Shown here: positions 10,391 through 55,482 of the stretch, piece after piece
How positions within the stretch are numbered: the first letter of the stretch is position 1
How the letters are laid out: the number at the start of each line of letters is the position of its first letter
Assembly: GCA_030704615.1 (NCBI GenBank)
Contig: CM060731.1
Location: forward strand, 90,644,001-90,708,000
DNA from: Takakia lepidozioides
Taxonomy: Eukaryota > Plantae > Bryophyta
Direction: 5' to 3'
DNA length: 64,000 nucleotides
Notes under the pieces: model-generated
The model's database searches: none
What the model was told of the DNA's origin: nothing
What the model saw: the letters and a program-made list of their open reading frames with translations, nothing else
Made by a program: the position numbers and the translations under genes

Positions 10391-10431
10391 CGAGGCTGAC
10401 TATCAGTTTCTTTCTGCCTACCTCCTGTGTA

Positions 10432-16400: not shown

Positions 16401-16403
16401 TGT

Positions 16404-17894: not shown

Positions 17895-18152
17895 TCTCAT
17901 GGCGGTCGTATCGAATTTTTTTTTTGCTGAAAACATAGCGACCACCAATATGGCGGTCGCTTCCAAATATTTAATTATATTAAAAAAATCGGTGGTCTCT
18001 TGTGATTAAATTATTATTTAAATGGAGCGACCGCCAATGGCGGTCGTTTCCATTTAATTTGTTTTTTAAGTGCGGTCGGTTTTTGTTTTTGTTTTTGTTT
18101 TTGTTTTTTTTGTTTTTTTTGTAAATGCAGCGACCGCCAATACTGGCAGTCG

Positions 18153-18190
<38 letters not shown>

Positions 18191-19127: not shown

Positions 19128-21624
19128 GGTGGAACAGGCGCAACAGCTCTCAAGCTCAACTTCAAGCCAGAAGAAGCTTCGCGTTCCTCACTATGTCTCT
19201 GGCTAGTTCTATTTCGTTCATTTTATTGCTTAAGGATATGTTTGGACCAGTGTTGGGAGGTTATTACCTTTTGTAAGACCCGCTGGTTTTGGGTATTGGC
19301 AGTGGGAGGTTGTGGACATACCCGCCGGAGACCAATATTAGATTTTTTTTTAGGATTTTACATACCCGGGGGTTATCAATGAAGCCCATTATCAAAATTA
19401 TTAGACAACATATCAATAACAATCAAACATGGATGATAACCTACGTTATGGGCTGGGGTTTAAAAAAAAATCTTCAATCATTTTTTAAGAGCGCCCTGTC
19501 CATATAAAATTTATACAAATATTATATAAATGTACAAATATTATCTAATCACTAATTAATACTAATACTAATTTATTTATTTAGGTGGCTAGAATATAAA
19601 GTTAGTTAGTATTCCTAAGTTCTCTAAGTAGTCTGTATTTTTTAAGGTATGGTGTGTAAATTTGGGCAATGTTTGACAATATTTTAAGTATTAGTATCAC
19701 TTACCAGTTTAATATGTTTTTAAGGGGGTGCTAAATCCCTGAAGCGAGGGGAATCATAATATCACCAAAACTTTATCCGAGGGTCCGGATCTCAGCATCA
19801 ATATCAGCTCAGCACGTAACCGGCGGGTAGGTTATAACCATGTACCCTGCGGGTCCGGGTCCACATACCCGCATTAATACATGTATTGATACCCTCTACG
19901 TACCCAATACCCTCCCAGCACTGGTTTGGACCACGTTCAATCTGCGACCCCCATCTCGTCGAGACAGGAGCATCCGGTCTCAGAGCAGCTACCTCGAATA
20001 CATACGCGGTGCACGGCATCCCCACAGGCCCGCAGGCCACCCTCTATTTTACATTATTCTTCAAGGTGTTGTTTTCACTCTCTTTATCACTCTTGTCTGG
20101 CAACAACAACCCGCTCAGCGATGGAAGCTCTATCCCCCGCCCCGTCTATATCAGGCTGAAAGTCATCACGAATTTGCTACACCCACATTGACACATCCCC
20201 CGCGATGGATTACCGCGCCTTCTCAACGCATGTATGCAGCTAACTCCCTATGGCCGCCCCTCCCACCACCGCACACACCCACCCGTTGTGACCCAAGTTG
20301 GAGAACAGTCTCTCGTCCACGTGTTTACATTGGTTATAAGCTGGGAGGAGGTTACTGCTCACACCCCCACTCTTTTTATCAAGTCCAGCTGTTCCATACG
20401 GTGCAAAATACTCTACAAATGGCAGATCATGTTCAGAGGCCTCCTCCGGGCCTACAATATTATGAAGTTCTTCCAGAATGGTAGAGAAGTTTTGCTGCGA
20501 ACGTTGAGCAGCAGCACCCTCCTCCGCTGACAGATCGCTGACATCGGTCGGTCCCGTTGCCTTGGCTGCAGCAGAGACGCCGCCAACATCACCTGTCTCA
20601 AAATCAAGCAGGAATTGGGTTTCAGCTCGTGGAACCAGTTTTGCGGGAGACTGCTCCGCCCTCCCTCTGATTGCCTTCTGCTTCTTAATCTTTGTAGGTG
20701 AAGGTGTCTGCTGCATTTGAATATGCACTGCCCTCTTTTACTTCATTCTCTTGGGGGGCGGGGAAACGGCCTGGTCCGGTTCCGAAATCTCTTCAAGCAC
20801 GGGCTGCTTCTTCTTGTTCTTTGCTGGAGAAGGGGACGACCCTTGCTGGCGATTGTCCATGAGCTTCAACCGTGCGTCTTTGTCTTGTGCTTTCAACTTC
20901 AAAGCCTTGCCTTTCCAAATAACGTCTTTGAAACGCACAGGGCTAGGCCCGGCAGGAAGACCTGTGCTCGTGGATCGGCTGGGTGTGCGTGCTGCAGCTA
21001 CCTCCATGGATTCTTCCTGCAGCTCTTCGGATCCGTGTGATCCCTCCACCACCTCCATCTTTCGAGTTAGGCATGCAAACATCTTATGCATTCAAGTGTC
21101 CTAACATACAGTCTAACAATTGCACAACGAAAAGGAGGGAGGGTTTTGGTGCTCGATCAGCTGCGCACATCCCGATAGCACGGAGCTCTCACTGGAGGCT
21201 GCGTTGTCTGCTGCTGCGCGATGACCATCTCCTCCTGAAGACGCATCTGCTTCTTCCCCTTTGGCATTGGCCTTGGTCCGAAGTACAACTTGCGAAGCTT
21301 GCGACGACGTCTCTTCTCTGGTGCAGGAACTTCCTCCCTTTCAGGTTGGAGCATAAGAAGAACAGAGACATGGAAAAGGGGCGAAGAGTGCAGATGGAAA
21401 GGGCGCGAGAGGGGTGAATGAGCAACCACGACAAAAGAACATGAAACAGCGGGGATGCACCGCTTGGGTTCGAAAGGTTGGGCTGGAAGTGTCTCCTCGT
21501 GGACTATGCGTCATTAGGAAATTCGAATTGTTAAAGGTACGCGTGTAGTTTGCCGGACAGACATCATTTTCCAACGGTCAGGCCCCGCCGCCTCTTGCCA
21601 CTTCAGCCAGCATGAATGCAGACA

Positions 21625-23240
21625 TCAAAATGCGGCGCCGCATTACTACCATTTGATCTCGCCTTACCTTTCGCATCCCGATGCAGGATAAAAATGCCAA
21701 GGTGGACTCGAGACACATAGAAATGCGGTGCGCATTTCCGTTGGGCCACGTGTTCATTTATCATGAAGTAGGAGCCAGTATGGGAATGCTGAGGGGCATT
21801 CCGTTGGAACTGTTGGAAATTGTATGCCACGGACGGAAATACGGCACTGCATTTTCGTCCCAGCGTCTGTTGAGTTACAGTGAAAACCCGCATTTCCGTT
21901 CCAAGCAGCGTTGAGTTGGATGCACAACGGAAATGCGGTTTCATGCCTGAGATGGAAAACGGAAATGCGGCGCCGCATTTCCATTCGACTGTTTCATGAC
22001 TTTCATCCAGAACGGAAATGCGGTGCCACATTTCCGTTCCATGGCTACATGCCTTACATGTTGGACGGAAATGCGGCGCCGCATTTCCGTTTAACTGTTT
22101 TATGACTTACAATCACAACGGAAATGCGGCACCGCATTTTCGTTCCACTGTTATGTACCTCCTACCTGATCGGGCTGTTGAGTTGGTGACTCACTTTTCA
22201 GGGCCCGGGAATATTGTGTTGACACTGAGGGAGAACCGGAACAGGTTTATGTTGGACGCGCGCGAGTACCACGACGATGTTGAGGATCTCCCACCCGCCA
22301 TGGAATACCTGCATGTTTTCACGAACCTCACCAATATAGATGTCTTGTATCTTCATGTGCACCATCTCCATCCAGATACCGGCAATGGTGGCTAGACGAA
22401 CACAACGCCACTCCTCATTATGGACCTGTTCTTTGAAGACTTCGTCGTCCGTGTAGTCGATCTGAACACAATGGAATAGGCATCGGGACGGGGAACCTCA
22501 GGACATTGTCGGTTGCGTTTCAATTCTACAGGCCGTGGTAGTGTTGTCCTCCATTTGGGGAGATAAGTTATTTAGAGAGGACAAATTTTGTGACTTCTTC
22601 CAATCCAGAACAAAAATAAAATTTTGCTGAAGTATGGATTTCTCTTCTGAATCGAGATGTGTTGAGGTTCTTGTACTTTCTGTTGTTGTCTTGTGTGCCT
22701 GAAGTCTGCAAGGTTTTCAATCGGAGTTCGGAGTCCACCGTCAACATGTGATTTCTTACTGTCTTACTATTTTGGCATATGTTTCACAATTTAGAAAGAA
22801 ACATCCCGAACGGAATGCGGCACCGCATTTCCGTTCAACCATGTGCCCGGTGGTACACGGGACCAAAATGCGGCACCGCATTTCCGTCGGCTCACTTGCA
22901 AAGGAAGAGCCCGGACGGAAATGCGGTACCGCGTTTCCGTCGGCTCACTTGCAAAGGAAGAGCCCGGACGGAAATGCGGTACCGCGTTTCCGTCGGCTGC
23001 ATTCCAAAGTAAGAGCCCGGACGAAAATGCGGCACTGCATTTCCGTTCCTGCCTATCCAAGGTGTCCCAGTCGACGGAAATGCGGTGCCGCATTTTTGTT
23101 CAACCATGGCTTACTTGTCCCATTTTACCGAAATGCAATACCGCATTTCCGTTCCAGTTGACGGAAATGCGGTGCCGCATTTCCGTTCACAATCAGAGAG
23201 AGGATGATGTCGAATGGGAATGCGGCACTGCATTTCCGTT
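21625..23240. repeat. Palindrome array of copy 1 (GGAAATGCGGYRCCGCATTTCC), split by an ORF cassette
   Basis: 53-bp spaced runs at 21961/22014/22067/22120 and 22917/22970/23023/23076/23129. Confidence 0.92.
22153..22566 (+). pseudogene. Orphan ~137-codon ORF inside the copy-1 array, with two in-frame TAG stops
   Basis: MYLLPDRAVELVTHFSGPGNIVLTLRE...LDAREY...GG*TNTTPLLIMDLFFEDFVVRVVDLNTME*ASG...VVLHLGR*; non-repetitive and protein-like; absent from copy 2. Confidence 0.55.
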
Positions 23241-23381
23241 CCGTCATGTGCACTGGGATGCTTTGTTCCGATACAACAGGAATGCGGCCTGTCTTTAAGA
23301 GCACAACTTGGTTGTCTAACCGTTTTAACTAACACTCCTGGCACTTGTCAGTGCGAACGGTCATGTCTGCATTGAGAATAT

Positions 23382-26300
23382 GGTAGGATCCACCCTTAGG
23401 AAAAACTGTCAGAAGATGTTATTGGTTCGCCGAATTGGCCATCATTGTCATACATACTGGATATGGAATCGGAGCTCTCACCTTCATGCATGTATCTTGA
23501 AACATTCTGCTCGACTTCAATGTGCGACTTCCAATCGTCGATGGATTCTGCAGTTCCAGTTACGTGGTGCCACTAAGCTTTGGTCTGTCGCTATAGGGAA
23601 CCTCACACTTGCCAACTTCGTGTTGTGTTCGATGGCTCCCGATTCCTACACTATAGTTTGCTGTCCTCCGCAATTTGGGAGAGCCAGGATCCCAAACGAG
23701 GGAGGACTTTGCAGAGTGACTGAGACTTACCTATGTTCCAAATTCAAGCTCAAACCGGGCACAGTTTATTTGGAAGAAGAAAGGAAGGATGTTCCTGGAT
23801 AGGTTGATCAGACCATTGTCGTGCCAGGTGCCGACGGAGGTTGCGGAATGGAGTGGCACGTACCCCCATCAGACACCATCTTGTATCGCGCTGTGGGAAT
23901 GCCCATTCCCTTCCCGAATCAGTCGTTGCCCACACCATCCACAAAGGAGTCGGGAAACCGACAGGCGGCCACTGCCACCAGAGAGGTATGTAACGGATAA
24001 TCATTCCCGACCTGGACCGTCAAGACCCTCCATAGCTTTTTGTGTGGAGGTATTCGACATTTCAGACGAGGAAAATGAGTGCATGGAGGTCCCCATGTCC
24101 TCCACACGGTCGTCCAAATCCGACATGGACGTCACTGCAGGTGCTATGCATGTACCACCGAGCATAACTCCAACCCGCTCCATTGTGCAGCTCCTACGGC
24201 AACATCCTCGATGGTTCCCGCTCCGAGCTGGCTGCTCTCGACTATGCCAAATTTCTAGTCAGGAAGGTAACGTATCTACCTCCCGAAGTTGATGGTAATG
24301 TGATCTTCGAGTTTCCACCTGTTACTTTGTCAAACAAAGCCTCAGGGATGTTAACAGACATGGATCGAAAGCATGACGGACACCCCTGGTGTGTGACGAA
24401 GACCAGTAGCACAAAAATTGCTGATGGTGTTCGTGTACGATACGTCCTCTGTGCGGGGAAGCTGAGGTGCCTCAATCCAGCCTGCTTCCACTTTCTCTCC
24501 AAAGGAGGGCGGAGAAACGAGACGGATTGGACTGACACAACCCATCATCCATTCATTGTCTCTAGCTAGGCTCCAACGGGTATTTTCAAGTGCGCACATT
24601 GCAAAGAACCACCGACATGCATGTCCATGTGCAGAGCCAAGCAATCTTATGTCATCATTTGCTCCCGGACTTGACTAGAGCTTGCATACACGTTGGGGTC
24701 CACTGCCACCCCTTGGCAAGAGGCAACATGCGGGAGGCTGTGCACGAAGCACACGACATCATAAAAGAGGAGGTGAAATTGAGCCCCGGAGCCAGACCAA
24801 AGCAGATTCAGCTCAAGGCAGCCCGTAAAATTGCTCTTGGCAAAATTATGTCTGAAGATGGAAAGGACCGAGTGCCCTTGAACGAAGAGGAGATGCTTGA
24901 CCTTTTGGAGTCCGTCTCGCACGTTTGTAGTCCGAATGTGCGGAATCACATCGTATCTTGCAAGCAGGAGTTCGGCCGGGGGTCGGACATGCACTCAATC
25001 CTGGAGGTGAAACGAAGGATTGGATATGACTACATCCAAGGTAGCAGGTTTCCAGGGCAAGGCAACAAATTTGATCGTTGTTATATTTTTAAAATGTCAA
25101 CGTGTGGGCCTGGGAGTGGAGTCGACTTGGTCACTCGAATGACAACTGGAAACTTGTCGAATGCTTGGGTGATGTTTGACCACATCAAGCGAATTACAAA
25201 CCATCAATGGGTGACCATGGGTGCGCATGTTTATGACTATCACTCAAAGAGGCTCATGACGATTGCAATCTGCGAGATGAAAGGGGAGGACACACAGTCG
25301 GAGATAAATCTGTGGGAGGGCATAAACGAACAGATGGCAAAGGCAGGTTTCCCAAAGCCCAATTTCAGGGGATTCATGGCAGACAACGCTCAGGCCAACT
25401 GGGCAGCGGTGCGGCGTGTGTATGGTGAGGACCCCAATGTTCCAATGGAGGGGAAAGAGAGATCATGTGGATTCCATTGGATGCAGAGTCTATCTCACTA
25501 CACTACCAAATTTGTTGCTAGCTCATTCCAAGCTGAACACTGTGTCCTTTGTACGGCGTGGAAGGATGCACCCACATTTGATGACGCAGATGTTAAGTTT
25601 GCTATCATGAGGCTTGGTGGAACACGTCAGGTGCAGTGGAGACAACCAATCTGGGAGCCTTGCACAGCTGGTTGGGGTGGTGGCATTTCCGGTATGGAGA
25701 GTTCGGATAGTACAAGCGGGAGGTATGATGCTAGACTTTTGCTGCAATTGTCGTTCTATTACGAACCTTTCCATTTTTCCCTCACCCTTGTTTATATCCT
25801 TGTAGGAGCGGTGCCTGGATTCTGACACGGACATGCCAAACACGAATATGGCTGAATCAGTCCACTCCTCCTGGCAAGCGTCTTCTGCCGCACATCTGGT
25901 GGACGTAGTGACGGCCACAACGGAGGACATCGACAGAGCAATTATGCAGCAAGCCAGGTACTACAAGTTCTTGAGCCGGAAACAATGGGGCTTTGGGCCG
26001 GATAGGGATGAATTGTTGGTACGAACAGCTTTGAGGTCGAAGAATCCACTGAAATGGGTGACAACATTGCGAGAGAAGATCAAAAGGACGCATCTGCACC
26101 GTAGAGGTGAACACTTAGAGGGGGACGTCCGTACTCGCCTTATGAGGCGGAGGATTGAAGAGGAACCCGGGTGTGAAGAGGATTCCTGGAGATCCGACAG
26201 GAACATTCGGTCAACACCTCGAGGTCCCGTCATGTTGCCGCACAATCTGTCTTCCATCAGTGGAAGCTTAAGAGTTTCCAGATCGCCATCGCCTTCAAGC

Positions 26301-27198
26301 GAGGATTCCGTGCGAGAAATTCCCACCGCTCGCCTGCCCCAGATTCCGCCCGCTGTTATGCAGTATGGCCAAGCCATTGTGGAGACGATTGTATCTGCGT
26401 CACAGTGGAGAATTGCTTGCACAAGGCCGACGTTTCGAGGCAGGTGTTCCGCAATTTGAGTGGATACACGGCAACGTTGTTTAGAGATGATAAGGAGGAA
26501 TCCAGATGGGGCTGTCCGTGCTCCTACTTTTACAGGAAGATTTGTCCATGCAAAGTTTTCGGAGGCGACAAGTTCTGCAGGCATGACATTATGACTTGCG
26601 TGTATGGAAAGCCCAAGTACGGCATACAAACAATGCTAGAGGCTCCCCCAGTCTGGCCGGTGGAACCAGGATGCGATCTGAGTCAGGTTGAGGCCGACGC
26701 CCTTACTGCCGCAGGATTTCGGATGGTGCAGCGCACTGACGTCCCAAACAACCATTTCCGCTTCCACAGCCTCCACCACCGACCACTATGAGAGCAAGAA
26801 CAATGGGATGCAACAACTCTAAGCATCCTACACACCGTTGGGGGAAACCGAAGAGGCGGAAACCTCCCTCAAAAGTGAACAAGACAAGGATGGGGAATGC
26901 ACTTCGGATGAGCTGTACAATCTAGAGCTCAACAGAAGTGCCCCCACCAGGCTTTGGGCATATGTATCAGATGGCCACGGCAAGCTCAGCTGTCCGCAAT
27001 GAGGTGTACACCATCACCATTTCAGAATTACCCACCTGCAATTGCACCGACTTCTAGATCATGGCAAACAAGGGGGCATCATACGTGTACCTAAAGAGAC
27101 TCCGGTGTAATTCCACAACTCATCACTTCATACATGCACCAGGGTTGAGCCCCCAAGAGGTGTACATTCTTCTGAATATGGATCCAGGGGACCAGTGA
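23382..27198 (+). pseudogene. MULE transposase, copy 1 (GCM-like ZnF, DDE, SWIM), disrupted
   Basis: ORFs 24183-24569, 24590-25825, 25833-26459. Motifs VMFD, FMAD, CGFH, NMAES. The SWIM CPCKH segment is lost by a small deletion. Start approximate. Confidence 0.88.
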
Positions 27199-29688
27199 GT
27201 TTGGCTTGCGGGCCACAAGACAATGTTATGCCCATCCTTTTCGAAGTTTCAGTTATAGTAGAATTGTACTGCTGCAAGTACCTCTGACTCTGACCACAAA
27301 AAGGTTCGATTTATGTCTTCCCTACCAGTAACCTATTTTGCTCGAACTAAGATAATACTATGCCATTAACTTCTGTTTCCACGTGCTTGTATTTTTGTTT
27401 TTTGGGGGGTTCCTGTTTTTCTGCTCTCCCAAACTTTGCTTTCCTCATTGGACCCCCCGCAAGGAAATGCGGCGCTGCATTTCCAAGTAACGTCGTAGGT
27501 ACTGGTAGTTGCGGCCTTCGTCATAGTAAGATAGTCGCACCGAGTCTTCAGGGGGCCGACCGTCGTGAACAGCGAACCCCTCAAAAATCTCGCACGTGCG
27601 AGCTGTAATGCGGCACCGCATTTTCCAGTTGAGTCGCAAACCTTTCCCGCCGAATGCAGGAAGAAGAAAGAATTTTGAAGCACTGCAGACTCTATTGTTG
27701 CATTGGGATCATACAATCGCGGCAAAAGGGTCAGCTTCATTCCAATGTTAGGGCATATGAAACCGCAGAATACTCTATACAGGCCAGTATGCGGTGTCTT
27801 TTTGCTGTGGTATATTGGATTTCTCGTTGCACGGTCAGTCATTTCCATGAGCAGATCTAAAAAACCATGAGCGGAATTGTTACTGACGACATATCTTCGC
27901 CGCATTACAGGATCTGGAACTTCCAAAAACGGCAATGTCAAATTAAAAAATATTATTTTAATACTTTTTTAATCTGCCGCATTTCCAAATTTGGAGGAGT
28001 CCGCTCATGAAAACCGCGTGTCTTGGACTTCGGCTCACCACTCATGCGGCTCTTGCGGCTCATGGCTCATGGTTTCTGCTCATGAAATAGTAAACCTCCG
28101 GCGATGCATCATTCAGATCAGTGTCTAGGCTAGGAGGGGAAGATCGCTGAGGACTTGAGGCTTCTGCAATCGTCACTATAGGGGCCAAGGGTGCCTGGGA
28201 ATCACCCACCCAGCTGGGGCTGGCTGGCATTGAAGAAGAAGGGGGATCCAGGTAGATCAGGCCCTTGGATTGGGCCTGGTGCGCCATGAAGAACCCGGTT
28301 CCAATGGAGGGCTGTAGGCGCCTGGGATCGCCGAACCTGGAGGGACTTGCTCTTGAGGGAGCCGATCTGAAGGCTTGATTGAGAAGAGGACCCATTGGTG
28401 GAGCAGAGAAACAGCTGCGGAAGACTCGAGACTTAAGGGAGCTGGAGAAGACTGGGTGGGAGATAACAAACGAGAATGAGAATGAAGAGAGCAACGAAGG
28501 AAGAGAGAGCAAGGAGCTGCAGTCTTTCGAGAGAGACTGAAGCGGCGCGCGTACAAAAAGGAGAGGTGACGAGCTTGGCTAAGCAGCTGAATGAAGGCAC
28601 TGGAGCAGCGAGTGAGGGATGCAGGTGGGGAATTTAGTGAAGGTGACGGCTGCCTGGTGGCAATAGCAATAGCCAGAGCTTGCCGGTGATCATTACTCGG
28701 ATGAAAGATGGAGTGAGATGATTGGCTCGGGCAGGGTTAATGAGGGAAAATGGGATGAGGTTCACTAGCAAGGCGGCTTAGCATTAAGGGAGATTGATGA
28801 GAACTTACTTGTGGTATAGATTCCTAAACATGCCAGAGGGATGAAGATGGCTTGTTCATCAGGGGATGAAGCCAAAACTGGAGTTTGAAACGACCTATCG
28901 GTTGAGGACTTGGGCGATGATGGTTCAAAATGAGAGAAGGGGTACGGGGGTTAGCTTCAAGGACATGATGATGATTCGTACGCATGAAGCTGGAGACGAG
29001 GATGAAGAAGCACCATAGAGAGCCATTCACGAAGGGCTCTCTCTCACCGCATAACGCGGAGCTCTTCCTCCGCCTCCATCTTTCGCAGTTTTCTCCACAA
29101 AATAGAAGTTGATTCGGAAAAAAAAAAAAACACTCAATTTTATAAAAAAAGAAAAAAAGAAAATGTAATGGACGATTTTGTATTCAAAAATTAATATTAT
29201 TCTGGGCTCGTCCCTCATCTTCTTTGATGTGTATTTTGCCTTATGGCATCTTTCAGGGTTTAATTTTTCCCTCCTTCAATAAAGTAATTGGCCAACGCCT
29301 TTTATTTAAAAAATAATATATCTATTATTTGTTTTTATTCTCTCATCTGCTCACATGGCTAAACCTATTCTCAAGTTTAGCCACAGAGGGATGACGTGGC
29401 CTTATGTGTGACTGCGTCTGTCGCTCCACAAATCCTTTCGACAGTGCCAGGACTTACCTCCATGCAGGTAATGTAACTACACGTAAGTGCATTTAGAACA
29501 CTGGTATTACCTCCCTGAAAGTATAACTTTGAACTAGCTTCCTTTGAATAGTACCCAGGTGTGTCAGCGTGAGAGTATTGTATACATGTCGGTATCACTG
29601 TGTCAATGAACAACCTCCTTGGAGGTTGTGTGTGATCTGATTTATTGTGTATGTGTATCCAAAACCACAACTTGGAGAAGTTACGAGA

Positions 29689-42500: not shown

Positions 42501-43888
42501 GCATAGCACCTTACGGGGCCAGACTTTTTTGCCAGGTGAGGATGGTCAAAGTAACTGTGACAAAGGGATGGAAAAAATGGAAGTTGCAGCTTAAATGACA
42601 TGGTGATTGTCAAGATGATCTATTCAACTTTGCTATAAATTCACACCTTCAGCTTACCACACATAAAACCCCGTAAATGCACTTGCAGCTACATACATGT
42701 TCCTACATTACTGACGTAGTATGAAAAGATTCACAATGGAATTGCTGTCGAAGAAGCTCTCAAAAGTAGTTGCTACCCGAGCATAAGGTAGGATTTGAAG
42801 TTACTCATGTTCAGTACAGAGTCCATATGACAATCGGCATATTAGCTTGCTAGATACTAAATCTTCAGTAACATTGCTAATTCATAAAAACTTGCTATTC
42901 CATTTGGAGCTAGTATTGAGAACAAAATTACATCAGAGAGACAAATCCTTGAACAAAAGGGCAGAGATCTTAGGTGATCAGTCTGCTACTAACCTGTGAT
43001 AAGAGGAATTATGTAGCCCACAGCCTGCACGCCGCATCCCAAGCGAGATATAGGGCATCGACTTCGGATTTTGCTTGGTTGTATTGGTGACAACTGGGCA
43101 CCAATACATAGCAGCATCAGAGTTAGGGTTGCCACACCAAAAGGGAGCAAGAAAAACTACGTTCTCCTTTCAGCTCTAAGGGACGAAGCTTGTCGAAATA
43201 AGCATCCAATGACTTGAGACCTTGTAAATCCTTTCATTTTTCCTCTAAACGGCCTCTTCCAGAACCATGGCTGCCTGCTGACACCCTCTTGTTCTTTGAC
43301 TCTGAAATAGGTACGGATACCGAAGGTGGTCCAATTGCCACACCATTCCTTACTGCTTCGGGTGTTGTGGACCCAATTAATTCTCTCTTGTGGAGCTTGC
43401 TGAAATATGCAGGGGGCTGCTATTTCATGAGCCATGAGCCATGAGCCATGAGCCATGAGCGGCATGAGCCATGAGCAGAGTCGTAAGTGTCGAAAAAAAC
43501 ATGAGCAGGACTATTTTCCGGAAATGAGTGTCCGCGGGAATAGGGTTTAGGGTGTCACGGTCATAGGGGGAGAAGGACCTCCCGATGAAGGAGGTTCGGC
43601 AATGTTTTTTAGAATTACATATTGAAAGGCAATGTTTCGCGAATGGTAGGGTGGTACTGCTCTGTACAATGGGGGCCCATTTCAGCCTACCAGCCACTTG
43701 CAAAATCCACCCACACTCCCAATCCCAAACGAAATGAGGAATGATGCATTCTGGGAACGATGGATACAGAATAGAACAAAAAGAGGGCACAATGGGGTTT
43801 TTATTGATCCACATGAATTGCATTTGAAGCATGTCTACTGTGCTGATTGTGCAAACAAATCTTTAGCCCTGTGCCTTCTGAATACAAG

Positions 43889-44452
43889 TCACGTTGTCAA
43901 TGGGACTTCGACTGCTCTGAGAACTAGCTCATGAGTCATCGGGCTCCTCCAGGTAAACTGGATTGCAGCCGTTGTACCGCCCCTGTTGATGTTCACCACA
44001 ATGTCGTGCCCTTCAATCATACCACCATCGAATATGGAAAGCTTCACGTTTTCGTCGTCCATACCAATGCAAATGTCCCCATACAATGGAGAAGAGGAGC
44101 GCACTCCTTCAAGAGTATACGTCTCTCCGATGGAATCCACCCACGTCCACTGGCAGCAGTTCCACCGCAACAGCATAGCAGTGCGCATTCTTCTGCATGG
44201 GTGCCCGTCGTAGCTGGGAAAATCGGAATCAAGGATGCGCAGGAGCCACGTACTCCTCAGACCAAGATCGTGACCCCGCTCGAAGACATAGTGGCCTGGG
44301 ATATACTCAAAAGCGGACAATGTTTCCACATTCGAACCAGTATCTTCTGTGTAATCTGTGTACCAAATAACGATGTCTCCCAATGTGGCCAAATACATTG
44401 CATAATCGAAGCCTCCATAAGGGCAGTCATCCCGGTTCCGGAAGCACGACAT
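43889..44452 (-). CDS. Orphan cargo ORF A (187 aa, uninterrupted)
   Basis: MSCFRNRDDCPYGGFDYAM...LGDIVIW...WNCCQW...YGDI...DGGMIEGHDIVV...ELVLRAVEVP; paralogous to ORF B. Confidence 0.75.
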   Translation of the reverse strand: MSCFRNRDDCPYGGFDYAMYLATLGDIVIWYTDYTEDTGSNVETLSAFEYIPGHYVFERGHDLGLRSTWLLRILDSDFPSYDGHPCRRMRTAMLLRWNCCQWTWVDSIGETYTLEGVRSSSPLYGDICIGMDDENVKLSIFDGGMIEGHDIVVNINRGGTTAAIQFTWRSPMTHELVLRAVEVPLTT

Positions 44453-44962
44453 CCTTGCAAAGAAGGACCTGAGGACCTCTTTGATGCCGATGACAATGAC
44501 CTTGCGGACAACAACAAAGCCCTTAGATTTTTGAAATGATGAGAAGCGGAAGAGCAGTGCGGGCTCCAATAATGGAGCATTTGGGTCCCACGTACCCACC
44601 AATCATCGTGTAACGTGTTCATCACGCCAGCGGTGGATGAACCGATACCTCTTTCTCATCCACGGGGTATAGTTTGAAATCTGCCACCAAAGTCCATCCC
44701 CCGGATGGAAATTCGGCGCCGCATTTACATCGAAGGGGGGATGGACTTCGTCGTCTCGAGTGGCTATAGGCCCACCTGGCACTTACTACCCATAGTTTGC
44801 ATGGCAGGGAAGGAAACTGAAACGGCTACATTCATGGAGCAGCCAATCTTCATCCGTGCAGGTTCCTGTAGGGGGGAAATTTAAATGTGCCCTGGAGTGT
44901 TTGTGAGGAATTGCAGCGTTTGCTTGAACTTCTTCCAACCACCGCGCTGCTCTTTTTCAAGG

Positions 44963-45541
44963 ATGTCGTGCCGTCGAAATCCTACCGACTGCCCTTATCA
45001 TGGCCACAATTATGCTATGTTCAAACCAGAATTAGGAGACATCATTGTCTGGCTCTCTGTTTTCACATACGCTTCTGGAATCAAGCGGGAGTCTTTGCGC
45101 GCAATGGAGTATTTGGAGGGCTATTACCGCTTTGAGCGAGGTGAGGGCGAGGGTCAATGCGGTCCGTGGGTCCTGAAAATTGTTGACCTCGATATACCAA
45201 GGTGGAATGGGATGCCGGACAGATCACGCACGGCCTCACTTTGGCGTTGGAACTGCTGCTAGTGGACCGGGAAGGACGGCACCGAGAAAAACTATATTCA
45301 TGGAGTTCACTCCGCTCTTCCAGTGTATGGAGACATTCGGCTGAGTTGCGAAGACGAATCGCACGGGCACATGAGGCCCACAGTGACCTTGTCAATGTAT
45401 GATGGTGGTATGATTGATGGGCATGACATTGTCGTCAGCTCCACCAAGGGCACCAGATCGACCGCATCGCAGTTTACCTCGAGGTGCCGCATCAGTAATG
45501 AGCTTGTTTTGAGGGCTATCGAAGTTCCGTCGACTTGGTGA
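44963..45541 (+). pseudogene. Orphan cargo ORF B (~192 codons), paralog of A, one in-frame TAG
   Basis: MSCRRNPTDCPYHGHNYAM...LGDIIVW...WNCC*W...YGDI...DGGMIDGHDIVV...ELVLRAIEVP; same CAAGGATGTCGTG start context as A. Confidence 0.75.
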
Positions 45542-45814
45542 CGCCAATGTAGAAGGAGTAAGGGCTTAGATTTGTCTTGAGTTGCTAAATGTGAGACACC
45601 GTGTTTGATCAATAAAACAACCCATCGTACCTCACTTCTGTGTGCTTCTGTTTCATCGTGTTCAAGAACTGCCGTAATTGGCCCACTGTTTACAATTTGT
45701 GGTCTCATTTCTACAATGTGTCTGTCCATATGAATATACCAGAGTCAGCGATATCAGAGTCCTGAGGTGAAGGAAATCCATATATGCGTAAAAGGAAACA
45801 TGTACACGCCGAAG

Positions 45815-46740
45815 CTCGGAAATTCGGCACCGCATTTCATTTTTCTCCATGCAGCGATTTCTGGCAGCTCCCTTTTCTCTGTTGTCGTCGTAACGGAAAT
45901 GTTGTACAACATTTCATTTCCTAACATGGCATTACCATACTTCGAATTGGAAATGCGGCACCGCATTTCCATATTGGACCTTGAATTGTCCGAGCATGTC
46001 CAGTCGCTAATGCTTGTCCATGTCCATACTTGAAATGCGGCACCGCATTTCCATGTCCGTCATCGAAATTTCGTACCGGACAATGAAATGCGTCACCGCA
46101 TTTCCGGAGAGCACAATGGAATGCGGTGCCGCATTTCCGTCCAACAAGACGGAATGCCCACACGGGTCTGGAATTGGACAAACAACGATGTCTCTTTTGG
46201 AAATACGGCGCCGCATTTCCATGTTTGGCAATCGAAAGTTTTTATAGAACAATGTAATGCGGTGCCGCCGGTGCCACATTTCCGTCAAAGGGTCTGGAAT
46301 TGGACAAACAACGATGTCCGTTTTGGAAATGTGGCGCCGCATTTCCATGTACGTCATCAAAATTTCTTATTGGACAATGGAATGCGGTGCCGCATTCCCG
46401 TCTAGCATCATGGAATGGGGAGCCGCATTTCCGTCGATGGGTCTGCAGTTGGAGAAATGTCCATCTCCAAAATGTAAATGCGGCACCGCATTTCCATGTT
46501 TGACCTCCGCATTTCCATTTATCCCCATGGAAGGAGCTGGCAATCGGCAAAACTGCCGTGTCGAAAACGGAAATCCGGCACCGCATTTCCGTTCGGCCGA
46601 ACAGTTTCTGATGTCCAAACCATGAAACGGAAAATTGTTCTTGCCCCGGTTTTGGAAATGCGATGCTGCATTTCCAAAGGAGGTTTTTGCAGTTGCCACA
46701 TTTCCGTTCCAACATTGAAATGCGGTGCCGCATTTCCGAT
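45815..46740. repeat. Left cluster of the 22-bp palindrome (~15 copies, mostly irregular spacing)
   Basis: Copies at e.g. 45949, 46031, 46084, 46199, 46325, 46378, 46569, 46716; some pairs are 53 bp apart. Confidence 0.88.
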
Positions 46741-46873
46741 TTTGGGAGGGACCAGGTTTGGACGATGTTGTCGTTGAGAAGCACATGGGAGAGGGGACAT
46801 GAAGGACGGGGAGAATTTCCTTTATATACTCTAGAAGGGAATTTAAATGTACAGAGAGTTCATTAAAATTCTA

Positions 46874-49800
46874 TTAATCTTGAAAATCATCACTATCGTC
46901 GTCCTGTCCTTGACTGTCCTGCTCCGCCTCCACCCCGTCATTGTCTTTTTCATCTCCAGCGGACTGCTCGTTGGCCAGGCTTTCGAAAATCCCATCTTCA
47001 CCTTGCGGAACCGACCATCTCACCTCCGTTGGCTCGTCGTCCTCCCTGTTTGCATCGCTCTCATCCGCTGAATCACATATGAACTTTCGCACCCGTCTAC
47101 CTGTCTCAGCTGTTGCCAACTCTTTCCTTATCCTTCTGTCCTCCCTAGCCATCTCCAAAATCTGCTCTACTTTACTGGGATTCTCACATCGTCTAATCGC
47201 TGTATTTGCGAGTTTAGCTGCATAACTAGGAAGGAGTAGTCCTTCACCGGGCTCGTCATGAAGTCGCCCCTCGCAAATAATGGGACATTCTTCCTGGCAG
47301 GAAGTGTAGGCCCTACATGTTTTGACCCGGATCCTGGAATCCTGCACATAACAATCACCAACGAGACCAATGAGAACCACAGTCAGGAAATGCGTTTGAC
47401 AAAAAATCACCCAGAAGGCTTTGCAAACTTACAATGTTTGCACTCACTCGTATTCCGGGTTCTCCTCGGCATCAATGTCCACTGTCTCTTCCTCCGACTC
47501 CGACAAATCCGAGGAGTCTTTGGCTTCAATGGGAGCCTTCACATTCCGTTGTGGCCCTTCCAGATGGGATCCCCAGACGGATGTGTCCTCCTCGTAGGCA
47601 AAGAGGTGCCGGTCGGAAAACCGCCCAACCCACATTGAGGCACCTGTTACAATGCCATCCACACATTATGACATGGCCCTTCAGATGTTGCAAATTAAAG
47701 CATAACGAGAATTTGCAGAACAGCATACAACAAGATTCTGCATACCTGTCCCACAGATGAGGTCGAGCACTGTGCCCTCCACGTCAGTGCATGTCTCCAT
47801 AATTGTCTGAATGAAGGCAGGACTCCGAGTCCGTGAATACCGCAGGGGTTCAGTTGAAGTGAGGCTATGAGGGAGAAGTTCCGTGGGAACGTTGTTGAAC
47901 AGAACGTCGTAATCGATGGGGTCGCAGTTCGGGTCAACCAACAATCCCTCCTTCCGGAAAGCAAAGGTGGAGTTCTCCTTCACAAAGCAGTATGCATTGA
48001 ACTGCTTCGTCTGCATACACAGTGGGGAACGATTAGAAATCGAATGCGGCACCGCATTTCAAAACTCCTAAGAAAATGAAAGGACGAGTGTCAATGTCGT
48101 AATTACCTTCTTCCCTTCCGACCGAAGGCCCAATGTGTTGATGCACGTCCACTTCTTCTTCAGAATTGGGACGGCGCTCTTGCGGGTCTACTTCGCAATT
48201 CCTGTTTGCGTGTTTTTGCCTCTGCTCGCTAGGACAACCACACAGCCTCTGTCGTCCAACACCCTGCAGGCGAGCCCAAATCCTTTCTTCCAAAAGTCCT
48301 CGGAGTACCTGTTCCAAGATGGCAAAGCTTGCAGTCCTTCCACAGGCTCTCCGTCCGGAATATCCAAGATGATCATATCGCAAGACCACTCGGTGGCATT
48401 TCCGCCCCTCCTGCAATCCTTGTCTGCACACACCGAACGAGACCATATTCAGAAACCCAGGGGTGTCGGAAGGCTCTTTGGCAGCCGCCTTTTTCAGTGC
48501 TATGCCCTTCAGACCCTCCATGGTCTTCATGTATGCCAACTTGGCTGCCCGTCCATCCAAAGAGCAGGGAGGAGTCTGCCGCCTTCACCTTGAGGATGAC
48601 ACACTCCACCATGTAATGCCAACCAATGTGCTTGGCATGGTTCTGCTTGATGTACTCCCACCAGGCAAGAAGTCAGTGATTCTCGTCCCACACAAAGAAC
48701 ATTTTACCCGACATATGGCCGAAGTCTGGATCACCCTTTAGCGTTGCCTCAAATCGTCGTTGCGAGTGTGCCAGTGGGTATCCCATGTTGACAATTCATC
48801 CGCAGTGGGTCCACGAGATTCGCCGTCCTCATTCTCAAGGGAAACGTAGAAGTCTGGCGAACCTAGACGGTACCCTTCTCGAAATGCAAACTTGAGCTTA
48901 TCCACATCTCCGGGAAGTGCCTGCCTGACGATGGGAAGGGAGACCATGCGACAGAGTGGGATTCGAAGAGTCCGCTGGAATACCCTGCTGCCCAGAACTC
49001 TGCCAATGCTACTGTGTGTCTCCTCCAACATTGTATCCGCTGCACTTTGGAATTCCTCCGGAGACTGCTGGTGGCGGTAGGGGCTGAGCGGCTGAAGCAT
49101 CCCCAACTGGAGCTGCACTCTGGGGAATCTTTGCGGGCAATTCTGCAATCGCAGAGGCCTCATCCGGGCCTGCAGTATTCTGAAGATCTTCCTCAACGGT
49201 GGTCAGGTCTTGCTGCGAACGTTGAGCGGCAGCACCCTCCTCCGGTACCACATCGACGAAATCGGTCGATCCCATTGCCTTCGCTGCAGCAGAGACGCCC
49301 TCAACATCACCAGGTTGGAAATCAAGTAGGAACTGGGCTTCAGCTCGTGGAATCGGTTTTGCGGGAGACTGCTCCGCCCTCCCCCTGATTGCCTTCTGCT
49401 TCCTCATTCTTGCAGGTGAAGGTGTCTGCTGCAATTGAATCTGCCTTATTCGCGTGGGTGGGGGGGAAACGGCCTGGTCCGGTTCAGAAACAAGTTGAAG
49501 GACGGGCTGCTTCTTCTTCGTCTTTGCTGGAGAAGGGCTAGACCTCTACTGACGATTCTCCATGACCTTCGAACGCGAGTCGCTCTCTGGGGCTTTGAAC
49601 TGCAAAGACTTGCCCTTCGAAGCCGCGTCCTTGAAACGCACAGGGCTAGGCCCGGCAGGAAGACCCGTGCTCGTGGATCGGTTGGGTGTACGTGCTGCAG
49701 CTAGCTACACGGACTCTGCCTGCGGCTCTTCGGATTCCTGCGATCCCTCCAGCACGTCCACCTTTCCGGTTAGGCATGCAAACATCTTCTGCATTCAAGT

Positions 49801-50045
49801 CTCCTAGCATACAGTCTAAGAATTGCAGAAGAAAAATGAGGGGGGTTTCGGTGCTCGTTCAGCTGGCTAATCCCGATAGCACGGAGCTCTCACTGGTGGC
49901 TGGGTTGCCTGCGTGGCCTGATGCTGCGAGATGGCAATCTCCTCCTGTAGACGCATCTACTTCTTCCCCTTCGGCATTGGCCTACGTCCGAAGTACAATT
50001 TTCGGAGCTTGCGACGATGTCTCTTCTCTGGTTCGAGCATAAGAA
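46874..50045 (-). pseudogene. Intron-containing gene: basic/low-complexity N-terminus, ParB/Srx-like domain, beta-class amino DNA methyltransferase-like domain, acidic tail
   Basis: ParB-like: RIPLCRMV...VRQ...DVDKLK..F..GY and FFVWDENH*LLAW (48661-48699; DGNHRL-like). MTase: DMIILDIPDG (motif IV), A.RVL...G.VVV, then RSPAFIQTIMETCTDVEGTVLDLICGTG|ASMWVGRFSDRHLFAYEED (motif I) joined across GT-AG introns 48011-48106 and 47644-47745. Several frameshifts and stops. Confidence 0.75.
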
Positions 50046-50389
50046 GAAAAGAGACAGGGAAAAGGGCGAAAGAGTGCAGATGGAAAGGGCGCGAGAGGGG
50101 TGACTGAGTAGACACGACAAAAGAAGATGAAACGGCGGTGATGCACCACTTGGGTTCGAAAGGCTTGGACGAAAGTGTCTCCTCGTGGACTTTGCGTCAT
50201 TACGAAATTCAAATCGTTAAGGGTACGCCTGCCGTCCGAAAAACAAACATCATTATCCAACGGTCAGGCCGTGCCGCCTCGTGCCACTTCAGTCAGATAG
50301 AGTGCAGACATGTGCCACAATTCCGTTGCTCCACGTGTTCACATTTCATGGCATTTCTGTCTCAGCGTCTGATGAGTTGGAGTGAAAAT

Positions 50390-51592
50390 GCAAATGCGGC
50401 GCCGCATTTCCGTTAAGTACCATCCCGAAGCTACACATACCGTACTTGTTGGAAGAAAATGCGGCACCGCATTTCTGTTCCACCTTCACAAACCTTAGTT
50501 GTTGAACGGAAATGCGGCACCGCATTTCCGTTCTGGAATGTCGGAAGGTGCGATTCGGACGGAAATGCGGCACCGCATTTCAGTTCCCGTGGTTTATGAT
50601 TTTCAATCTGAACGGAAATGCGGTACCGCATTTCCGTTCCACCTTCACATACCTTAGTTGATGAACGGAAATGCCGTGCCGCATTTCCGTTCGGGAAAGT
50701 ATGAAGGTCTCACCTGGACGGAAATACGGTGCCGCATTTCCATCCCACAGCTCCATGCCTCATATACAAAACGGAAATGCGGCGCGGCATTTCCGTTCTG
50801 GAATGTCGGAAGGTGCGACTTGGACGGAAATGCGGTGCCACATTTCAGTTCCGATGGTTCACGATTTTCAGTCAGAACGGAAATGCGGTACCGCATTTCC
50901 GTTCTAGAGAGTATGAAGGTCTCAAACGGACGGAAATGCGGTGCAAAATTTCCGTCCCTCCACTCCATGCCTGAGATAGAAAACAGAAATGCGGTGCCGC
51001 ATTTCAGTTCTCGTTGTTCATAATTCTCAATTAGAACGGAAATGCGGTACCGCATTTCCGTTCAGGAGAGTATGAAGGTCTTAACCGGTCGGAAATGCGG
51101 TGCAGCATTTCTGTCCCTCGGCTCCATGCCTCAGATACAAAACGGAAATGCGGCGCCGCATTTCCGTTCTGGAATGTCGGAAGGTGCGACTCGGACGGAA
51201 ATGCGGTACCGCATTTCCGTTCTGGAGAGTATGAAGGTCTCAAACGGACGAAAATGCGGTGCAACATTTCTATGCCTCAGCTCCATGCCTCAGATACAAA
51301 ACGGAAATGCGGCGCCGCATTTCCGTTCTGGTATGTCAGAAGGTGCGACTCGGACGGAAATGCGGTGCCGCATTTCAGTTCCCGTGGTTCATGATTCTCA
51401 ATCAGAACGGAAATGCGGTACCGCATTTCCGTTCTGGAGAGTATAAAGGTTTCCCCCGAACGGAAACTCGGTGCCGCATTTCCGTCACACTGGTGCATGA
51501 CTAAGATGCAAAACGGAAATGCGGCGCCGTATTTCCGTCCAACAGGAATCGAAAGTATCACTCCGGACAGAAATGCGGAACCTCATTTCCGC
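50390..51592. repeat. Main palindrome array: 23 copies, 20 consecutive at exactly 53-bp period
   Basis: Starts at 50508, 50561, 50614, 50667 ... 51462, 51515 (every step +53); 22-bp palindrome plus 31-bp spacer. Confidence 0.95.
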
Positions 51593-51715
51593 ATGCGGAA
51601 CCTCAATGGGTTGCATTGTTCCGAAACAACACAATTGCGGCTTGTCTTAATGAGCACAACTTGGTTGTCTGACGGTTTTAACTAACAGTCCTGGCACTTG
51701 TCAGTGCGAACGTTC

Positions 51716-54700
51716 ATGTCTGCACCGAGAATACTGCTGGATCCACCCTCAGGAGAAACTGTCAGGAGATGTTATTTCGTCGCCGAATCGGCCATCATTG
51801 TCATACTTACTAGCTATGGAATTACACCTCCCACCTTCATGCATGTAGCTTGAAACAATACTTTCCACTTCAATGTGCGACTTCCAATCGTCGATGGACT
51901 CCGCAGATCCACTTACATGGTGCCTGTGAGCCTTTGGTCTGTCGTTATACTGAACCTCACACTTGCCAACTTCGTGCGGTCTTCGATGGCTCTGAATTCC
52001 TACGCTATAGTTTGTTGTCCTCCGCAATTTGGGAGAGCCTGGATCCAAACGAGGGAGGACTTTGCAGGGTGACTGAAACTTACCTTTGTTCCAAATTCAA
52101 GCTCAAACCGGGCAGAGTTTATTTGGAAGAAGAAAGGAAGGATATTCCTGGACAGGTTGACGAGACCATTGTTGTGCTAGGTAACGACGGAGGTTGCGGA
52201 ATTGAATGGCACGTACCCCCATCAGACACCATCCTGTACCGAGCTGTGGGAATGCCCATTCCCTTTCCGAATCAGTCGCTGCCCACACCATCCACAAAGG
52301 AGTCCGGAAACCGACAGGAAGCCACTGCCAACAGAGAGGTATGCAACGATAATCATTCCCGACCTAGACCGTCAAGACCCTCCATAGCTTCTCGTGTGGA
52401 CGTATTCGACATTTCCGACGAGGAAGATGAGTGCATTGAGGTCCCCATGTCCTCCACACGGTCGTTCAAATCCGACATGGATGTCTCTGCAGGTGCTATG
52501 CATGTACCCTCAAGCATAACTCCAACCCGGTCCATTGTGCAGCTCTTACGGCAACATCACCTCGATGGTTCTCGCTCCGAGCTGGCTGCTCTCGACTATG
52601 CCAAATTTCCAGTCAGGAAGGTAACGTATCTGCCTCCCGAAGTCGATGGCAATGTCATCTTTGAGTTTCCACCTGTTACTTCCTCAAACAAAGCCTCAGG
52701 GATGTTAACAGACATGGATCGAAAGCATGACGGACACCCCTGGTGTGTGACGAAGACCAGTAGCACGAAAATTGCTGATGGTGTTCGTGTACAATACGTC
52801 CTCTGTGCGGGGAAGCTGAGGTGCCTCAATCCCGCCTGCTTCCACTTTCTCTCCAAAGGAGGGCGGAGAAACGAGACGGATTGAACTGACACAACCCATC
52901 ATCCATTCATTGTCTCCAGCCAAGCTCCTGCAGGTACTTTCAAGTGCGCACATTGCAAAGAACCACCGACGTGCATGTCCATGTGCAAAGCCAAGCAATA
53001 TTACGTAATCCATTTGCTCCCGAACTTGACTAGAGCTTGCATACACGTTGGGGTCCACTTCCACCCCTTGGCGAGAGGCAACATGCGTGAGGCTGTGCAG
53101 GAAGCACACGACATCATAAAAGAGGAGGTGAAATTGAGCCCCGGAGCCAGACCAAAGCAGATTCAGCTGAAGGCAGCCCACAAGATTGCTCTTGGCAAAA
53201 TCATGTCTAAAGATGGTTCAGACCGCCCTTGAACGAAGAGGAGATGCTTGACCTGTTGGAGTCCGTCTCGCACGTTTGTAGTCCGAATGTGCGGAATCAC
53301 ATGGTATCTTGCAAGCAAGAGTTCGGCCGGGGGTCGGACATGCACTCAATCCTGGAGATGAAACGAATGACTGGATATGACTACATCCAAGGTAGCAGGT
53401 TTCCAGGGCAAGGCAGCGAATCCGATCGTTGTTATATTTTTAAAATGTCGACGTGTGGGCCTGGGAGTGGAGTCGACTTGGTCACTCGCATGACAACTGG
53501 AAACTTGTCGAATGCTTGGGTAATGTTTGATCACATCAAGCGAATTACAAACCATCAGTGGGTGACTATGGGTGCGCATGTTTATGACTATCACTCCAAG
53601 AGGCTCCTGACGATTGCAATCTGCGAGATGAAAGGGGAGGACACACAGTCGGAGATGCATTTGTGGGAGGGCATAAACGAGCAGATGGCAAGGGCGGGAT
53701 TGCCAGAGCCCAATTTCAGGGGATTCATGGCAGACAACGCTCAGGCCAACTGGGCAGCGGTTCGGCGTGTGTATGGTGAGGACCCCAATGTTCCAATGGA
53801 GGGGAAAGAGAGATCATGTGGATTCCATTGGATGCAGAGTCTATCTCACTACACTACCAAATTTGTTGCTAGCTCATTCCAGGCTGAACACCGTGTCCTT
53901 TGTACGGCGTGGAAAGATGCACCCACATTTGATGACACGGAGGTTAAGTTTGCTATCATCGAGGCTTGGTGGAACACGTCAGGTGCAGTGGAGACAACCA
54001 ATCTGGGAGCCTTGCACAGCTGGTTGGGGTGGTGGCATTTCCGGTATCGACAGTTCGGACAGGACATGCGAGATGTATGATGCTGTCATTTTCGTGCAAT
54101 TGTCTTTCTATGACGGACATTTCCATTGGTCCCTCACCATTGTTTGTGTCCTTGTAGGAGCGGTGCTTGGATTCCGACACGGACATGCCGAACACAAATA
54201 TGGCAGAATCAGTCCACTCCTCTTGGTGAGCATATTATGCCGCACATCTGGTGGACGTAGTGACGGCCACAACGGAGGACATCGACCGAGCAATCATGCA
54301 ACAAGCCACGTACTACAAGTTCCTGAGCGGGAAACAATGGGGCTTTGGGCCGGACAGGGAGGAATTGTTGGTACGAACAGCTTCGAGGTCGAAGAATCCA
54401 CTGAAATGGGCGACAACATTGCGAGAGAAGATCAAAGGGACGCCTCTGCACCGCAGAAGTGAACACCTAGAGGGGGACGTCCGTACTCGCCCTGTGAGGC
54501 GGAGGATTGAAGAGGAACCCGGGTGCGAGGAATATTCTTGGAGATCCGACAGGAACATTCGGACAGCACCTCGAGGTCCCGTCATGTTGCCGCACAATGT
54601 GTCTTCCAGCAGTGGAAGCCCAAGAAATTCCAGATCGTCATCGCCTTCAAACGGGGATTCCGTGCGAGAAATTCCCACCGCTCGCTTGCCCCAGATTCCG

Positions 54701-55482
54701 CCCGCTATTATGCAGTATGGCCAAGCCATTGTGGAGACGACTGTGTCTGCGTCACAGTGGAGAATTGCTCGCACAAAGCCGTCGTTTCGAGGCAGGTGTT
54801 CCGCAATTCGAGTGGATACACGGCAACATTGTTTAGAGATGATAAGGAGGAATCCAGATGGGGTTGTCCCTGCTCCTACTTTTACAGGAAGATTTGTCCA
54901 TGCAAAGTTTGCGGAGGCGACACCCTCCCAGTTCTGGTTCTGCAGGCACGACATTATGACTTGCGTGTATGGAAAGCCCAAGTACGGCATACAAACTGAC
55001 GTCCCCAGACAACCATTTCCGCTTCCACAGCCTCCACCACCGACCCTGTGAGAACAAGAACAATGGGACACGACAACTCTAAGCATCCTACACATCGTTG
55101 GGGGAAACCGAAGAGGCGGCATTCTCCCTCAAAAGTGAACGAGACAAGGATGGAGAATGCACTTCGGATGAATTGTACAATCCAGAGCTCGACAGAAGTG
55201 CCCCCACCAGGCTTTGGGCGTGTGTATCAGATGGCCACGGCAGGCTCAGCTGTTCGCAATGAGGTGTACACCATCACCATTTCAGAATTACCCACCTGCA
55301 ATTGCACCGACTTCCAGATCATGGCGAACAAGGGGGCATCATACTGCCCTTGCAAGCATCTGTACTACGTGTACCTAAAGAGACTCCAGTGTAATTCCAC
55401 AACTCATCACTTCATACATGCACCAGGGTTGAGCCCCCAAGAGGTGCACACTCTTCTGAATATGGATCCAGGGGACCGGTGA
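51716..55482 (+). pseudogene. MULE transposase, copy 2: GCM-like ZnF, DDE core, SWIM
   Basis: DGHPW..CAGKLRCLNPAC..CAHC..C..HVGVHFHP; VMFD, FMAD, CGFH; intron ~54074-54158 then NMAES; SWIM CNCTDF..CKH. Stops and frameshifts present; start approximate. Confidence 0.9.

Follow-up and report, generated by a model that had tools for sequence, protein, structure and literature searches.

ParB-like accessory genes have been described from large DNA transposons of algae. In the red alga Bostrychia, Plavaka transposons include inverted-repeat arrays beside ParB-like PAG3 genes (10.1101/2025.02.11.637652), and in Ectocarpus, Sola1-1_Ec32 encodes a protein with ParB and N4mC/N6mA methyltransferase parts opposite the transposase (PMC12477816). 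A bacterial array of similar layout is sopC of the F plasmid, which consists of 12 units of 43 bp, or four helical turns each, with a 16-bp inverted repeat, and the Pu-Py centre was reported for all 205 sites (PMC3177203). Among the Mutator-like elements of land plants, the Arabidopsis VANDAL transposons have the VANC anti-silencing system, whose motifs are 8-9-bp non-palindromes diverging between families (PMC5735166; PMC10398659).

The window analyzed here is a stretch of 64,000 nucleotides from the bryophyte Takakia lepidozioides (contig CM060731.1). It includes two copies of one Mutator-like DNA transposon of about 13 kb, with an array of palindromes between its two divergent genes. The array is a real, structured cis element of this transposon. 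The locus is a land-plant variant of the ParB-accessory/inverted-repeat cassettes known from algae, with quantitative signs of helical phasing.

As in the algal cassettes, a ParB-like accessory gene is encoded by a large DNA transposon, and self-binding of its product is a proposal there too. The position of the gene opposite the transposase and its methyltransferase-like tail are shared with Ectocarpus Sola1-1, and the tandem inverted-repeat array adjoining the ParB-like gene is shared with Bostrychia Plavaka. The difference is the GCM-type Mutator transposase in a land plant, and the likeness of the accessory gene, designated here as gene B, to PAG3 and the Sola protein is one of description. 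The text consulted of the algal papers contains no analysis of period, phasing or spacers; their supplements may describe array geometry.

Structure of the transposon and its genes

The features of the two copies are listed in Table 1. Copy 2 is bracketed by the target-site duplication GAAATATGCA at 43402 and 56391. MULEs generate target-site duplications of 9-11 bp, and the 10-bp duplication of copy 2 is thus of the MULE type. Classic MuDR elements have long terminal inverted repeats (TIRs), while non-TIR MULEs exist too. Copy 2 is without long MuDR-type TIRs and has just the short imperfect TIRs and the CATGAGC repeats. From left to right, it is composed of the gene A inverted pair, an irregular palindrome cluster, gene B on the minus strand, the array and the transposase on the plus strand.

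Table 1. Coordinates of the features of the two transposon copies, as positions in the window.
Feature	Coordinates	Strand	Description
Copy 1 of Mutator-like element	20434..28098		Right terminus intact, left end missing; right-end motif at 28078
Gene B 5' part and upstream region, copy 1	20434..21620	-	Aligns to 49152-50311 at 84-87%
Degenerate and half palindromes, copy 1	21622..21945		Centres 21636, 21729, 21845, 21886, 21939; from PWM and half-site scan
Left run, copy 1	21957..22145		4 palindromes at 53 bp, centres 21971-22130; spacers related to copy-2 types
Small ORF, copy 1	22153..22479	+	108 codons, one in-frame stop; inside the block between the copy 1 runs
Right run, copy 1	22807..23241		9 palindromes, centres 22821-23226; steps of 53 bp (seven) and 34 bp (one); spacers show no relation to copy 2
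Mutator-type transposase, broken	23720..27200	+	GCM-like zinc domain, DDE domain, SWIM finger
Two dispersed palindromes 3' of transposase	27459..27628		141 bp apart; same positions in copy 2 (55755, 55896)
Copy 2, full length	43412..56390		Imperfect terminal inverted repeats of about 20 bp; CATGAGC repeats in subterminal position; target-site duplication of 10 bp (GAAATATGCA)
Gene A	43889..45541		Inverted pair, 49% amino acid identity to each other; one palindrome (44717) between
Irregular cluster, copy 2	45814..46740		14 palindromes and 3 half-sites; spaced near whole helical turns
Gene B, broken	46874..49545	-	Acidic N-terminus, ParB/Srx-like domain, methyltransferase-like tail; palindrome 48050 in inferred GT-AG intron
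Array, copy 2	50386..51593		21 palindromes at exactly 53 bp and end sites at 65 and 54 bp; five recurring spacer types

Copy 1 is without everything left of 20434, and a search of this copy for the left-end motif found none. The two copies align in three blocks with 81.5-88.6% identity (blastn), and both gene B and the transposase are broken in both. In place of the left part of copy 1, positions 19278-20433 consist of an AT-rich, MITE-like part and, after it, a stretch of low depth that appears to be single-copy.

Homologue searches with gene A and with the small ORF of copy 1 found none. The small ORF is absent from copy 2 and exists elsewhere: related contig pieces show 8 and 40 differences over it. 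Contigs from one public sequencing run cover every bin of both stretches compared, with 7,125 contigs on 4.5 kb of copy 1 and 15,737 on 2.2 kb of copy 2, which indicates that the element family is highly repeated. The summed contig depth, which is not equivalent to copy number, is high across the copy-2 array and far lower over the block 22216-22970 of copy 1. There is a weak hint here that the small ORF and the right run mark a minority subfamily. Among the listed differences from the copy-2 stretch towards other copies, 19 A>G and 16 T>C were counted versus 8 G>A and 6 C>T, the excess expected if the copy-2 sequence decayed by methylcytosine deamination. The array and the small ORF are also touched by a few contigs from runs whose RNA origin is a guess, and these contigs were kept out of the evidence. 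No Rfam match was obtained at the gathering score for positions 19500-28500, and no description of this land-plant family was found in the literature outside subscription journals.

The transposase homologues, 53 of 491 candidates, show 36-48% identity, and the ORF in the window is 46% identical to the homologue P0003. The top match of the P0003 model (pLDDT 75.6) is ISCth4 (Z 10.5, rmsd 4.2, 178 residues aligned), which characterizes it as an IS256/Mutator-type DDE transposase. The same model is similar to 1ODH, a structure of GCM bound to DNA (Foldseek E 2.6e-3; Z 5.8 and rmsd 4.2 over 129 of 157 residues), and the alignment indicates that the transposase in the window retains the Cys/His metal-ligand pattern of GCM. 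The SWIM finger in copy 2 was detected with an E-value of 0.031, below the curated cut-off. The combination of a DNA-binding domain of WRKY-GCM1 fold, a DDE domain similar to that of Mutator/IS256 and a SWIM finger at the C-terminus is that of the described WRKY-GCM1-type MULE transposases (PMC1702500). The additional ubiquitin-like N-terminal domain, seen in the P0003 model, and the extra accessory genes are different from these.

Gene B has 119 homologues, with the motif [DE]GNHR in 33, and the ParB-like segment of copy 2 (48562-48968) aligns to homologues at 42-46%. Gene B of copy 1 ends before this domain. The fold was modelled on the homologue P0071 (pLDDT 77.9), not on the protein in the window, and the top matches of this model are the ParB/Srx folds of PadC (Z 8.0, rmsd 2.8, 98 residues aligned) and KorB (Z 7.9, rmsd 2.6, 93 residues aligned). 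Its Foldseek list is led by Noc, Srx and ParB with E-values of at least 0.01. Behind its ParB domain, the homologue has a helical region that matches HTH structures at just Z 3-4 with pLDDT 60-70, and the broken gene B of copy 2 appears to be without this region. The tail of gene B includes DIPD and LDLICGTG, read by eye, which we take to be methyltransferase-like motifs. This tail matches the tail of P0082 (E 4e-5), and it gave no hit among the profiles of Pfam, NCBIfam, PHROG or PDB sequences. Pfam named no family for the gene-B homologues, and a word-indexed search with a gene-B piece returned no homologues. Profile searches against PDB sequences found neither GCM nor ParB; the fold searches alone did.

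The array lies directly upstream of gene B in both copies. In L002 and L003, two related loci that look like one locus seen twice, a gene-B-like fragment on the minus strand lies upstream of the transposase, at the same divergent position. Three 55-bp tandem units of different sequence, heavily decayed, were observed at 6517-6690 of L002, just upstream of the related transposase.

Several other features were seen in the window. Positions 2099-2218 were considered as a third gene-B copy and rejected, being antisense of a Ty3/gypsy pol segment; this antisense strand closely matches the ParB-like part of gene B (tblastn E about 1e-5) and is possibly a captured piece. ORF pieces resembling a pogo/Tc1-type (CENP-B-like) transposase, a family label given by eye, lie on the minus strand at 37155-38913. 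Long inverted-repeat pairs with 81-90% complementarity (8496-10602, 12762-16602, and 18802-19132 with 61778-62107) are probably ends of other DNA transposons. A complex satellite-like repeat with units of about 107-111 bp is found in two places, 41450-42500 and 56970-59680.

Palindromes, their spacing and their spacers

The palindrome has the 18-bp core AAATGCGGNNCCGCATTT, a symmetric 8+2+8 structure with 56 matches at two or fewer mismatches against 0.03 expected. Using a PWM, 58 sites were recognized, 17 in copy 1 and 41 in copy 2, all inside the element; the same scan of the 43 kb of the window outside the element gave no site. All 58 lie outside the inferred coding exons, including the one (48050) in the inferred intron of gene B. 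No copy of the motif was found in 14 related loci, and a repeat scan of six of them revealed no comparable array. A second, unrelated palindrome array with T-rich spacers (GCGACCGCC...GGCGGTCGC), probably of another transposon, was seen at 17938-18621. Its steps are 51, 52, 52, 51, 46, 56 and 41 bp, and it is not clearly phased overall (mean cos 0.11).

The arms are much more conserved than the spacers. By parsimony on one tree of 31 distinct spacers, the 16 arm columns of the core show 16 changes, about one per site and half of them at one CpG, and the 23 spacer columns show 157 (6.8 per column), counts that are approximate because the tree was built on spacers. Of the 116 half-sites, 98 retain the inner CG of the arm, while the centre varies. 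The central dinucleotide is Y-R in 56 of the 58 sites (CA 18, TG 16, CG 13, TA 9, other 2). This corresponds either to CpG decay or to a required flexible step; the arms are protected under either explanation. One palindrome of copy 2 (45891-45919, centre 45905) has a mirror-symmetric double change, ATGTTG-TA-CAACAT, suggesting hairpin-templated copying.

A step of 53 bp, equal to five helical turns, is common to both runs of copy 1, as the initial annotation had recognized. The right run had been placed at 22917-23129 there; it starts at 22811 and reaches 23237 with one 34-bp step. The two runs of copy 1 are 691 bp apart (13x53+2), with a block of about 650 bp including the small broken ORF between them. 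That the 53-bp phase is carried across this gap was considered and rejected, as an offset of 2 bp is within chance. The degenerate and half palindromes of copy 1 are spaced by 93, 116, 41, 53 and 32 bp.

Other spacings are irregular: 21, 30, 32, 33, 34, 41, 63, 65, 74, 77, 82, 85, 93, 116 and 141 bp. These fifteen distinct spacings, which exclude 53 and 54 bp, cluster near multiples of 10.5 (p=0.002 with the period fixed and half-sites included; the distances are not fully independent). The p-value is 0.03 with full sites only, and 0.06 with the period free and 53/54 excluded. Over all 17 distinct distances, the best period is 10.6, or 53/5. A spacer length of 23 bp is common to about six mutually unalignable spacer lineages. 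The conservation of spacer length alone is modest, with p from 0.02 to 0.10 when judged by the indel rate of the flanks on units chosen by their 53-bp step, and it was weaker in another run of the test. The proposal that the conserved geometry suggests selection is supported by the slow change of the arm columns, the retained inner CpG and the spacings near whole turns.

The flanks of the array align closely between the copies, as had been noted before: identity is 84-87% beside the array and 94% in the transposase exon, and 29 of 311 four-fold sites differ. The spacers were compared with a null of real 23-mers from the element (mean 9.0 matches). All three spacers of the left run are related to the 20 spacers of copy 2, sharing 16, 15 and 16 of 23 bases (P for 15 or more, 0.002; for 16 or more, 0.0004), and 16-17 of 25 in a separate comparison with the copy-2 types. 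The six distinct spacers of the right run share 7-10 of 23, which is chance level. Shuffle tests and gapped tests, with the reverse complement included, agree. The two spacers quoted in the initial annotation are both present, at 22886-22916 (repeated at 22939-22969) and at 23045-23075, and its statement that the spacers of the two copies differ thus applies to the right run and not to the left run. The array differs more between the copies than the flanks do, yet it is unrelated in the right run only.

The spacers are not unique in either copy. In copy 2, five types are arranged in the order EABECDABCDBCDACDABCD, and in the right run the neighbours R2 and R3 are identical. The copy-2 types share 2-14 of 23 bases among themselves. 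They are thus as far apart from each other as copy 1 is from copy 2, and sorting of old units suffices to explain the difference without fast point substitution. It is likely that the copies differ through turnover of old repeat units and not through new spacers. Inversion of spacers was considered as the source of the right-run types and rejected, with no convincing reverse-complement match to the copy-2 types. The array had also been described as the fastest-evolving part of the element, in an arms race with host silencing. This is supported in part: the array does differ beyond its flanks, but unit sorting can account for the difference, an arms race is not needed, and the palindrome, the part that a protein would read, shows no divergence from one copy to the other. 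The spacers gave no indication of an external origin: in 197 kb (the window and 14 related loci) the best match was at most 18 of 23 bases, the best E-value against phages was 0.1 (four records at E 0.1-6 were taken as chance), and the palindrome had no exact match in viral and prokaryotic contigs.

Candidate binders of the array

A symmetric 8+2+8 core repeated on one helix face, and present in every non-coding part of the element including the inferred intron, points to a dimeric protein as the binder. The array is predicted, with moderate confidence, to be a helically phased loading site for the ParB-like protein of the element, probably for self-marking. The ParB-like accessory protein would bind each palindrome as a dimer, and the bound protein would regulate or chemically mark the element. 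Spreading from the array, methylation of adenine or cytosine by the C-terminal domain, and an anti-silencing effect are predicted. Selection would act on the arm sequence and on the spacing, which puts the sites on the same helix face every five turns, and not on the spacer sequence. Slippage in register, or unequal exchange, at the palindromes would add and remove whole units, and old spacer types would thereby sort differently among subfamilies. The subfamily of copy 1 would be distinguished by an additional small gene and by right-run spacers of its own.

The ParB-like protein is preferred as the binder because of the sopC-like geometry, the association of ParB with inverted repeats in Plavaka, and the ParB-methyltransferase opposite the transposase in Ectocarpus Sola. 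Both sopC and the array consist of tandem units of fixed length with an inverted repeat and a period of whole turns (four for 43 bp, five for 53 bp). They also share a central dinucleotide restricted to one class, degenerate end units and an adjacent ParB-family gene. The centre is R-Y in sopC but Y-R here, and the sopC units are fairly conserved while the spacers here are diverse (PMC3177203). A segregation role is unlikely for this array, as the element is chromosomal and eukaryotic; no ParA-like gene was found among the window ORF pieces scanned.

The transposase is the other obvious candidate. If its GCM-like zinc domain is the binder, the palindrome would be two head-to-head GCM-type half-sites, and the array would serve for autoregulation or self-activation of the transposase. 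The similarity of the P0003 model to 1ODH and the Cys/His pattern kept in the window protein agree with this explanation, as does the right run, which lies immediately 5' of the transposase. Between the half-site ATGCGG(Y)(R) and the GCM target ATGCGGGT, six of eight bases agree, with ATGCGG common to both (PMC2172107), and the AtMu1 transposase alone is described to activate cognate copies (10.64898/2026.08.24.746577). However, common arrangements give Z-scores in the range of 5.8, the identity to GCM amounts to 13%, the putative GCM recognition strand is unlike that of homologues, and WRKY-GCM1 families diversify their target sites (PMC1702500). The termini moreover have a different tandem motif, CATGAGC, of the kind that is the usual target of a transposase; this separate motif further favours the ParB-like protein as the binder of the palindromes. 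The low Z-scores of the HTH matches in the gene-B homologue and the lack of the motif in the 14 related loci, for their part, count against the ParB-like protein. Binding by the transposase is considered rather unlikely, but it is a serious alternative.

It is improbable that the array is a nearly neutral internal minisatellite, in which slippage of whole units maintains the period mechanically and correction on a hairpin template maintains the symmetry. The duplication of higher-order units in copy 2, the identical neighbours R2 and R3, and the very stable folding (z -13.9) are compatible with such an origin. The symmetric double change at 45905 is compatible as well, but it is the one such change noticed among 58 sites. 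Against a minisatellite stand the occurrence of the same arm sequence at dispersed, non-tandem sites with unrelated flanks, the retention of the inner CpG while the centre varies, the single length of unrelated spacers, and the phasing of the irregular spacings.

Binding by gene A, by the small ORF or by a host factor, with the array acting as an enhancer or a nucleosome-positioning element, is quite improbable. Gene A and the small ORF are without assigned function, the two gene-A copies have one palindrome between them, and the last palindrome of the left run is closely followed by the start of the small ORF. Against this, the small ORF is missing from copy 2, which has the longer array, and the 43 kb of the window outside the element contain no site.

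A CRISPR-like memory array with fixed-length spacers acquired from outside would resemble this array in its palindromic repeat and its unalignable spacers of constant length, but this explanation can practically be dismissed, since spacers recur within the arrays, the left-run spacers are homologous to those of copy 2, no source was found in the window, the 14 loci or phages, the repeat is absent from the viral and prokaryotic collections, and no Cas family was found by a Pfam scan of 19 window ORF pieces.

For the proposed phased loading site of the ParB-like protein, VANC and the algal ParB cassettes provide analogies that make an anti-silencing role plausible, and self-marking is likewise an extrapolation from these systems. 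As in VANDAL elements, a Mutator-like element carries accessory genes, the motif is found in non-coding parts, among them introns and the region 5' of the transposase, and motif arrays are gained or lost between subfamilies by tandem-repeat turnover (PMC5735166; PMC10398659). The long conserved palindrome and the fixed phase are different from VANC motifs, and a Pfam scan of 19 window ORF pieces, which are pseudogene fragments, found no VANC domain (DUF1985/DUF287). A more far-reaching proposal can be made tentatively and is open to doubt: a land-plant Mutator family may have rebuilt ParB-parS for epigenetic self-defence. A ParB-like clamp-methyltransferase fusion would load at the sopC-like five-turn array, spread, mark the element and counter silencing, and accessory genes and arrays would be swapped as cassettes among subfamilies.

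According to the proposal in the algal papers, accessory proteins with a ParB domain bind the transposons that encode them and modify these, with the target site left undefined in the text consulted. The Takakia element offers a precise candidate site, an 18-bp core with a Y-R centre, a 53-bp phase and 58 natural variants, which makes the hypothesis directly testable. If it is true, this family would show that transposons can protect themselves by a second route, different from VANC, and it would offer a compact module of bacterial type for sequence-specific epigenetic targeting.
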